A stretch of 35,154 nucleotides of DNA, taken from IMG/VR virus record IMGVR_UViG_2913152634_000005. The stretch is one strand, 5' to 3'. Of this stretch, positions 5,393 to 6,914 are shown one piece after another; position 1 is the first letter of the stretch; each line of letters begins with the position of its first letter. The notes under the pieces are model-generated. The model had not been told where the DNA came from and made no database searches. It was given only the letters and a program-made list of their open reading frames with translations. Made by a program: the position numbers and the translations under genes. The stretch comes from a virus (taxonomy: Duplodnaviria > Heunggongvirae > Uroviricota > Caudoviricetes).

Positions 5393-5404
5393 GGTTTGTA
5401 GTGG

Positions 5405-6300
5405 TCAAGTAATACTGGCCACGGTTTTACAGTAAAAATGGTACCTGTTCTCGGACTCTTCCGGAGTCAACCCACCGTTATAATGGTGAGGTCTGATACT
5501 GTTGTAGTAGTTCAATATGTAATCATTAATTTGCTGCCGGGCCTCGTCCTTGTCGACGTAACCATTCGCTGGCACCCATTCTGTTTTCAGACTGCGGAAG
5601 AAGCGTTCCATTGGGCTATTATCCCAGCAGTTTCCCCGCCGACTGACACTTTGCTTTATTCTGTAACGCCAGAGAATTTGTTGATATTTCAGGCCTGTAT
5701 ACTGGCTTCCCTGGTCGCTATGGAACATAACATCATGTGGTTGACCACGCGTCTCATAGGCCATCCGCAGGGCATCGCTTATCAGTGCAGTATCGGCATG
5801 TGCGGACAGACTCCAGCCGATAACCCTGCGGGCAAAAAGATCCATCACAACCGCCAGATAGCACCAGCAATTTCCGGCCCAGATATAGGTAATATCTCCA
5901 CACCATACCTGGTCTGGCTCGGGGGCAGCGAACTGGCGCCCGAGCAGATTCGGCAAGCAGGTATGCTCCTGACGGGCATTTTTGTACTGATGTTTTCCGG
6001 GCTGACAACTGCTCAGATTCAGATGTTTCATCAGCCGCCCGGCACGGTAACGGCTCATCGGGACGCCGTTTTGGGTCAGCATGTCAGCCAGCGTGCGCGC
6101 CCCCGCAGAGCCCCGGCTTTGGTTCCACATCCGGCGTATTTCACTGCACAACCTGACATGCACCGGATTCACCGTATCGCGTCGTTTTTGCCAGTACCGG
6201 TAACTGCTGCGGTGTATTCCCAGAGCAGAACACAGACTGACAACGGTGTGGCTGCCACTGAGTCTGGCAACTATCGTGAACCGTTCAGCGAGTCGGACAT
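5405..6300 (-). CDS. IS3-family transposase OrfB (DDE catalytic domain), expressed as OrfAB by -1 frameshift
   Basis: ORF 5405-6172 with DDE-type motifs ([24 protein letters not shown]); frame stays open upstream into the orfA overlap. Confidence 0.8.
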
Positions 6301-6582
6301 CAAGAGTGCAGTAGCCTTTTTTAATATCGTATTTTGTTCCTCCAGGCGGCGAACCTGCTTTTCCAGCTCGCGGATACGTTGCTGGTCTGGAGTAATCGGT
6401 GTGGCAGAGGGGGCAATCCCCTGGCGCTCTCGTCTGAGCTGACGTACCCAGCTCTCAAGAGTGGTAGAGCCGACATTCATCGATTCACTGGCTTGTCGAT
6501 ATGAGTAGCCCTTATCAACAATCAGTTGCGCACATTCCAGTCTGAACTCGGGGGTGAAAGTACGTTTGGTTTTCTTGTTCAT
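6271..6582 (-). CDS. IS3-family transposase OrfA (HTH)
   Basis: 103 aa; strongly similar to IS911 OrfA at 34852-35154; ends at the slippery heptamer A AAA AAG. Confidence 0.85.
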
Positions 6583-6654
6583 TAAGTCACCTGTTTTGTG
6601 TTGAGGTGAGAATATCACCTTTAATCAGGTGGCCAAACTTACTGTGCCACTACA

Positions 6655-6914
6655 ATCCACGCCAGCGTGAAGCTGGTATCTCCGGCAGATTTCTGCCCCT
6701 GCCCGGTCGCAGTCCAGTCCGCATCTTCATCATCGAGATAGCTGTCGTCATAGGACTCAGCGCTCAGTTCGCCGGGCGTCAGGTCTTTAACTTTAGCCAG
6801 ACGCGACCAGTCAACGTCTGAAAGCGGGTTCGCATAAGGGTCACCGTTCCCCTTATAAACCCACAGGGTGGTCCCGGCCCCTTTCACCGGCATTACTGGA
6901 TTTGGTACAGGCAT
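6655..6914 (-). pseudogene. V: major tail protein V, 5' fragment truncated by the IS
   Basis: [22 protein letters not shown]...SFTLAW matches the lambda gpV N-terminus, then reads into the IS terminal repeat. Confidence 0.85.

Follow-up and report, generated by a model that had tools for sequence, protein, structure and literature searches.

IS (insertion sequence) insertions and deletions in the morphogenesis genes of Escherichia coli lambdoid prophages are well documented (PMC2669165). Among copy-out-paste-in elements, integration targeted to inverted repeats (IRs) has been described, as have deletions that start at the edge of an IS and arise from IR–IR junctions (PMC9333248), and the same source attributes a dual target specificity to IS911. 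For IS629, extended deletions that depend on the transposase, with IEE, have been reported (bioRxiv 10.1101/2023.06.07.543989). According to a review, canonical copy-out-paste-in transposition regenerates the donor and by itself deletes no flanking DNA. In addition, for the helper-embedded PICI class, capture of helper late genes has been described (PMC10111431). In the prophage analysed here, a complete IS3-family element, termed ISb, joins the first part of the tail tube gene V to the spacer in front of lom in the place of a block of tail genes, a deletion that was very probably IS-mediated by one route or another. As in the rearrangements of IS629 (with IEE), IS30 and IS911, the loss is anchored exactly at an IS tip; for the present locus and that of strain 2015C-4136CT1, described below, the evidence is that of sequence comparison.

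The window, i.e. the whole stretch of 35,154 nucleotides that was analysed, represents a lambda-like prophage located between ibsB and mdtA, with its late genes on the minus strand. It aligns with positions 2679776-2714922 of the complete genome of E. coli Z1323HEC0355 (NZ_CP148363.1; human, South Korea) with 12 substitutions, one 9-bp insertion and two 1-nt deletions, and is, judging from this alignment, a near-identical relative of that strain or another assembly. Nu1, A, W, B, C, D, FI, FII, Z and U are intact as ORFs, which agrees with what an earlier reading made from the sequence only (hereafter the sequence-only reading) had said of the head and packaging genes apart from E. The latter gene is interrupted near codon 80 by an element of 11.4 kb (window 9459-20858), and a second IS, ISa (window 34773 onward), stands where the early region from P to int has been lost. 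In the right arm, lom and side tail-fibre genes are accompanied by nleB2, nleC, nleD, an NleG-like gene and part of nleH. The features discussed below are collected in Table 1.

Table 1. Coordinates of features at and around the V–lom junction (positions in the window; V', truncated V)
Feature	Position	Strand	Remarks
lom, Ail/Lom outer-membrane beta-barrel protein	4737..5336	-	intact; PF06316 full length, E-value 5.5e-123
Terminator-like hairpin of the J-lom spacer	5366..5385	-	GGGCGCC-AGAA-ATGGCGCC and T run; then lom RBS
lom-side junction	5396..5397		...TATATGGGTT / ISb IRR tip
ISb, complete IS3-family insertion sequence, ISEc31-like	5397..6654	-	1258 bp
ISb inverted repeats	IRR 5397-5422; IRL 6629-6654		imperfect
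orfB frame	5405..6322	-	HTH_21 and rve DDE domain; open from slippery site to stop
orfA	6271..6582	-	103 aa, HTH_Tnp_1; end just beyond slippery site
V-side junction	6654..6655		ISb IRL tip / ATCCACG
Truncated tail tube gene V	6657..6914	-	codons 1-86; ATG at 6914
Tail gene U	6922..7317	-	intact, PF06141 full length; directly upstream of V'
K'-I fragment	11507-12246	same strand as tail genes	85% identity to Z1323PEC0014 K-I; inside PICI
ISa, second, different IS911-like element (1249 bp)	34773..35154	+	start only; runs off window end

The sequence-only reading had placed a complete IS3-family element between V and lom, and its coordinates proved exact. The ends of ISb read TGTAGTGGTCAAG... at 5397 and ...GTGCCACTACA at 6654, and its termini, TGTAGTGG...CCACTACA, form 30-nt arms with 77% complementarity that close with the 5'-TG...CA-3' of IS3-family elements; its length likewise falls inside the 1.2-1.5 kb of the family. 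The joined OrfAB product matched positions 1-368 of the 369 in the NCBIfam model NF033516 (IS3 family transposase) with 368.5 bits against a cut-off of 160, and the Pfam domains HTH_Tnp_1 in OrfA and HTH_21 and rve in OrfB all scored above their cut-offs. A slippery A AAA AAG lies on the minus strand from 6322 to 6316, where orfA and the -1 frame are both open; the C-terminal end of OrfA reads ...ILKKAT..., and PGAP annotates the transposase with a predicted programmed frameshift. By its sequence ISb can be assigned to the IS3 family on every feature tested except the target duplication, and the missing duplication, being the result of a later rearrangement, is no argument against membership. 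With both frames, the slippery site and the inverted repeats intact, ISb appears to be active. Full-length copies with 99.5-99.9% identity occur in about 100 E. coli records, and three places in the host genome match the ISb query.

By ISfinder convention, isoforms agree with the reference element in about 95% or more of their nucleotides. ISb showed 90.9% nucleotide identity over 1258 bp to an ISEc31 copy in EcPF15, below the isoform level of about 95%, this copy being one labelled by PGAP and not the ISfinder reference, and on this comparison ISb is classed as a close relative of ISEc31 rather than an isoform. With the IS911/ISEc31 group it shares orfA and orfB linked by an A AAA AAG -1 site, an OrfB with the rve DDE domain, 5'-TG...CA-3' ends, inverted repeats of about 26 bp and, at other sites, 3-4 bp duplications. 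We take its IRs to resemble those of IS911 closely. It stands apart from that group in its identity values, i.e. the value given above for the PGAP-labelled ISEc31 and 65% to the co-resident IS911-like ISa.

At the V side, the translation of V' runs MPVPNPV...FTLAW (86 codons) and is followed by IVVAQ and a stop codon (6639-6641) supplied by the tip of ISb. Ending at residue 86 of about 246, V' is a gene fragment; it matched only positions 1-70 of 135 of the Pfam profile Phage_TTP_12, short of a full tube domain, and PGAP calls it a pseudogene ('phage tail tube protein, missing C-terminus'). The gpV protein of lambda consists of the tube domain plus a C-terminal Ig-like domain. Both of the intact relatives that were compared, the prophages of strains Z1323PEC0014 and 2022H047, read GGGC/ATCCACG in V, which puts the break after the first two bases of codon 87. 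At the lom side the spacer of these relatives reads TATATGGGTT/ATAACAATT-TCA, with the break 9 nt beyond the J stop codon. The hairpin of this spacer, running from 5385 to 5366, stands 11 nt from the end of ISb, and the same spacer is found in the intact relatives. ISb is thus flanked by ...GGGTT and ATCCACG..., and GTT against ATC makes neither a 3-bp nor a 4-bp target duplication. On all three points, the cut in V after codon 86 at the right end of the IS, the left end lying at the terminator and RBS of lom and the lack of a target-site duplication, the sequence-only reading had been correct. A consensus scan of 4700-7000 for a sigma-70-like site, i.e. a possible IS-created hybrid lom promoter, found none.

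The best intact relative for the V-to-E side is the prophage of strain Z1323PEC0014 (L006), in which V-G-T-H-M-L-K-I-J-lom follow in order and several head and lysis proteins are identical to those of the window. Window 6655-9458 corresponds to positions 16001-18806 of this prophage with 99.1% identity, and window 3045-5396 to positions 3864-6215 with 93.5% identity; the latter side has 99.3% identity to the equivalent region of the bio-locus prophage of strain 2022H047 (L005). That the V and lom sides have different best relatives is ordinary lambdoid mosaicism. Absent from the window are positions 6216-16000 of the Z1323PEC0014 prophage, a total of 9,785 bp that comprises V from codon 87 onward and G, T, H, M, L, K, I and J. 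Comparison with relatives carrying an intact V-to-J block, which the sequence-only reading had put forward as a check, therefore bears out the loss of G through J that it had proposed. Both breakpoints coincide to the base with the ends of ISb, and the locus has the marks of an IS-mediated deletion, namely an intact IS, breakpoints at its tips, flanks that lie this far apart in the intact relative, and no duplication. In the alignment with K-12 the chromosomal flanks of both prophage ends abut at a single ibsB-mdtA site with synteny kept, so the loss took place inside one integrated prophage. An att-core repeat was also sought at the prophage ends, where no exact match of 11 bp or more was present.

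The arrangement V'-ISb-lom is identical in the complete genome NZ_CP148363.1 and in the assemblies GCA_904810035.1 and GCA_000193975.2, the ISb of the last showing no mismatch with the window copy. In addition, contigs that encode the 91-aa V' fusion product come from 39 blocks of the assembly collection, and a complete genome from the US, that of the sister strain 2015C-4136CT1, shares the V breakpoint. The junction is inherited within a lineage.

Against this distribution, an assembly error at a repeated IS that left out tail genes still present in the genome has a negligible probability. IS copies are classic mis-join points, and the sequence-only reading had named co-oriented tail genes nearby as a sign of such an artefact; one fragment of this kind, K'-I, does lie 4.6 kb away and is the sole tail-gene remnant nearby in the window. 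However, it is too divergent from the K-I of the relative (Table 1) to be a piece of misplaced tail module, and it lies in the 'late zone' of the PICI inserted in E, for which reasons we rejected it as the missing tail block; the otherwise similar PICI of strain VCSW7 has no K'-I gene annotated. An exchange between prophages, in which the V and lom sides would stem from two ISb-carrying prophages or chromosomal sites that became fused, nothing being deleted in place, is improbable. It could explain why the lom and tail-fibre side is closest to 2022H047 and the V side to Z1323PEC0014, but lambdoid mosaicism accounts for these differing identities, both prophage ends flank one contiguous K-12 site in a syntenic chromosome, and this order would have been disrupted by a single crossover between IS copies at distant loci. 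More improbable again is a deletion by illegitimate recombination followed by a chance insertion of the IS into the junction, which would require the IS to have landed exactly on it. Copies of ISb at other sites (99.5-99.8% identical) are flanked by the duplications GGGC, GTA, CAT and GATG (four sites, with GTA at the same site in two strains), and two further copies, beside gene fragments, are without duplication. ISb therefore normally makes 3-4 bp duplications; the absence of one here indicates that the window copy has been rearranged since its insertion, and in effect rules out an ordinary insertion into an older deletion junction.

A one-step, transposase-driven adjacent deletion, to which we give an even chance, could have made the V-lom junction as follows. 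An ISEc31-like IS3-family element would have inserted into the lambda-like prophage, with V taken as the original insertion site as a working assumption; later, one end of ISb (IRR, if V was the original site) would have joined the J-lom spacer 9.8 kb away in a transposase-dependent, intramolecular reaction, either by one-ended ('sloppy') strand transfer or by way of a short-lived IS dimer whose active IR–IR junction inserted at a nearby position. The DNA between the joined sites, with distal V and all of G through J, would have been lost, and the product would be a single intact IS with flanks from two places and hence no target duplication. The order of these events, the choice of the original junction and the action of transposase rather than RecA are what we infer. 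The low copy number of ISb counts for the one-step route, as do other tip-anchored losses in the same lineage, but the route needs an extra step, since canonical copy-out-paste-in transposition leaves the flanking DNA in place. The sequence-only reading had held that an adjacent deletion fits, and so it does, given that an insertion into a pre-existing junction would have left a duplication; yet recombination between two copies fits equally. In the latter explanation, which we consider a serious though somewhat doubtful contender, co-oriented copies of ISb in V and in the J-lom spacer underwent RecA-dependent recombination that excised 9.8 kb and one IS. This would give exactly the observed product, an intact IS with breakpoints at its tips, no duplication and 'hybrid' GTT/ATC flanks, and the prophage is bracketed by two identical copies of ISa. 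Copies of ISb may serve as recombination partners in this lineage, since in a metagenome contig (L017) V'-ISb continues into the sequence that flanks the leuX-island integrase copy of ISb in 2015C-4136CT1, although this contig may be an assembly chimera across a repeat. However, the explanation demands that a low-copy IS inserted twice, independently, in one orientation and within 10 kb, and genomes carrying one of these insertions or both were not encountered. Our search of 5,426 complete E. coli genomes, with long queries and synthetic junction queries, returned no intermediate with ISb alone in V, alone in the J-lom spacer, or in both. The expected junctions would read CTCTCCGGGCATC/TGTAGTGGTCAAG for a simple insertion of ISb in V and CCACTACA/GTTATAACAATTTC for one in the spacer. 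Neither the V-distal/IRR nor the IRL/J-end junction had a match in complete E. coli genomes, GTDB representative genomes or JGI metagenome contigs; the pattern of V' joined to the IS tip was absent from the latter two collections, and no ancestral intermediate occurred among the examined contigs encoding the V' fusion product. The check for hybrid target duplications that the sequence-only reading had suggested yielded nothing, as the searched collections contain no intermediate genome, and the choice between the one-step and two-copy routes rests on indirect arguments.

A possible transposase-recognized pseudo-end at the J end matched IRR at 13 of 26 positions with an offset of +1 (per-position background P = 0.0043), which after counting the offsets and junctions tried amounts to about p = 0.06-0.1 and is non-significant, and the idea was dropped. 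Matches in O111 and others that combined an IS3-family element with pieces of V have the IS in FII, not V, and the element is a different one; they have no bearing on the present junction.

ISa, which marks the other deletion in the window, sits at the P'/'int junction without a target duplication (TAG/TAA); a second, identical copy, located in yegL, is flanked by a clean duplication of GGT. In strain 2015C-4136CT1 V is cut at the very nucleotide at which ISb stands in the window and is joined there to the IRR tip of the yegL ISa, CCACTACA/ATCCACG, and 8,799 bp between the ISa IRR tip and the ISb IRL tip are gone, a lost interval that takes in ibsB, nleD, nleC, nleB2, the tail-fibre genes, lom and the whole of ISb. 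As ISa and ISb have only 65% identity overall, this deletion is not a product of ISa-by-ISb homologous recombination. At each end, however, 22-23 of the first 26 bp match, which is expected if one transposase recognizes the end of the other element. That the ISa transposase targeted the heterologous ISb end intramolecularly, in a natural cross-recognition at the V breakpoint, is a reading that we put forward only tentatively, placing it slightly short of an even chance. As with the IR-targeting of IS30 and IS911, the IRR of one element is joined at the IRL tip of the other, the expected intramolecular product. A microhomology deletion between the shared 8-bp CCACTACA tips could also have given this product, as could an insertion of ISa beside ISb with subsequent ISa-by-ISa recombination. 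Should cross-recognition be correct, the strain would show in the field how IR-targeted transposition can drive the stepwise erosion of a prophage; to the study of end-targeted events among related IS elements the comparison adds a small data point from nature.

The element in E encodes a tyrosine integrase, AlpA, an Icd-like gene, a primase and SSB, together with its own E-like capsid gene (42% identical to the prophage E) and a D-like gene (38%). We considered whether it might be something new and rejected this idea, as it matches a published type of helper-embedded PICI at the E codon-80 site; on gene content and position it is identified as '11capE', site E:Phage_cap_E:80. As in the '11capE' description of Mageeney et al. 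2023 (PMC10111431), the element measures about 11.4 kb, lies near codon 80 of the lambda E homologue and runs in the direction of the late genes; a block of about 10 bp recurs at both of its ends, and its genes include int, AlpA, a primase, an Icd-like gene and an E-like capsid gene of its own. In contrast with that description, the helper here is dead, having neither tails nor early region, and the PICI of the window has a 1-nt frameshift in int and another in the primase when compared with the RefSeq genome. This helper-embedded PICI is thus stranded in a helper without tails or replication.

With V truncated and G through J gone, the prophage is unable to build tails, as the sequence-only reading had concluded, although it understated the decay, since P to int is deleted as well and the prophage can therefore neither be induced nor replicate. 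The region is a non-inducible, tail-less, defective prophage remnant that keeps its virulence cargo, and in annotation it should be labelled as a defective prophage remnant. Morphogenesis genes are lost, and lom, the tail-fibre genes and the T3SS effector genes (the NleG-like gene, nleB2, nleC and nleD) are locked in the chromosome. It resembles the decayed lambdoid prophages of EHEC and EPEC, e.g. the Sp prophages of O157 Sakai (PMC2669165), in carrying effectors and in combining IS elements with deletions in morphogenesis and early genes. It differs from the Sakai Sp prophages in that the IS is not IS629, the host lineage is another one and the site is ibsB-mdtA. IS-driven prophage decay of this kind is real but ordinary and already known, and the ISb deletion leaves current understanding unchanged; it provides a base-exact example of IS elements 'grounding' an effector-carrying prophage. 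Elements of the ISEc31 group also stand at independent tail-module deletion junctions in EcPF15 (I' to J', no duplication) and SCU-172 (T to J'), both of which were chance finds that we had not looked for.

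Elements of the ISEc31 group were found at tail-module deletion junctions in two lambdoid prophages unrelated to the one in the window, namely that of EcPF15 (L016 3579-4836), in which the element lies between I' and J' without a duplication, and that of SCU-172 (L003 7928-10408), in which it lies between T and J'. The IS and the tail genes are co-oriented in EcPF15, SCU-172 and the window alike. The SCU-172 element has an IS30 inserted inside it.

Further joints of V', the tail-tube gene fragment abutting ISb (the ISEc31-like element of the window), were found elsewhere. In the sister strain 2015C-4136CT1 (L004, NZ_CP027550.1, 10752-12010), the IRR tip of ISa, the second element, is joined to V' at the same nucleotide at which, in the window, ISb meets V' with its IRL tip; an 8,799-bp stretch that holds ISb, lom and the nle genes has been lost from between these two tips. 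Heterologous IR-targeted transposition is a candidate natural origin of this joint. In a single metagenome contig, V'-ISb is connected to the flank of the ISb copy in the leuX-island integrase of 2015C-4136CT1, a join produced either by the IS, through chromosomal rearrangement, or by chimeric assembly across the repeat.

Locations of the IS copies, satellite and cargo features
Feature	Location	Remarks
V'-ISb in metagenome contig	L017 (ENA ERZ28761050 contig_380) 10261-11580	
ISb copy in leuX-island integrase of 2015C-4136CT1	L026 (NZ_CP027550.1) 2501-3757	GATG duplication
ISa copies	L001 4383-5631 and 42549-43797; window part 34773-35154	1249 bp, IS911-like
PICI	window 9459-20858	11.4 kb, integrase-bearing; splits major capsid gene E near codon 80
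E fragments either side of PICI	window 8664-9452 and 20851-21096	
K'-I tail-assembly fragment	window 11507-12246	minus strand; Lambda_tail_I domain
T3SS effector cluster	window 1-2974 and L001 6610-7706	downstream of tail-fibre genes

The two ISa copies are identical and co-oriented, with ibsB and nearly the whole prophage between them, and recombination of one with the other would excise the whole prophage remnant. A GGT duplication flanks the copy in yegL. The copy at the early-region junction P'-'int is flanked by TAG and TAA, without a duplication, a mark of the deletion by which the region for immunity, replication and integration was lost.

The PICI, both ends of which share a core of approx. 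10 bp (TGCTTCGGCT), encodes AlpA, an Icd-like gene, a primase, SSB and an Abi_C gene, together with an E-like (42% identity) and a D-like (38%) gene of its own. Element and site (E:Phage_cap_E:80) correspond to '11capE', a helper-embedded PICI already published (PMC10111431). Strains 2015C-4136CT1 and VCSW7 carry this insertion too, the latter in a helper whose tail genes are annotated as intact. Two reading frames of the PICI are shifted in the window by 1-nt deletions relative to NZ_CP148363.1, namely those of the primase (at 16334, giving ORFs 15243-16334 and 16280-16993) and the integrase (at 20575, giving ORFs 19461-20573 and 20570-20827), and the window also differs from that record by a 9-bp insertion at 14998-15006. 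These indels are either true pseudogenisation, in which case the PICI would be locked in E, or sequencing errors. Downstream of the AlpA-like regulator lies the K'-I fragment, 85-92% identical with the K-I genes of two relatives, which resembles the late-gene capture reported for the same PICI class; no K'-I gene is among the annotations of the VCSW7 copy.

The effector cluster comprises an NleG-like DUF1076 gene, nleB2, nleC, a truncated nleH, adjoined by an IS256 fragment, and nleD. Its order resembles the nleC-nleH-nleD region of EPEC E2348/69, with 98.6% identity across that part, but the chromosomal site differs. Of the 5,426 complete genomes searched, Z1323HEC0355 alone showed the junction between the cluster and ibsB.
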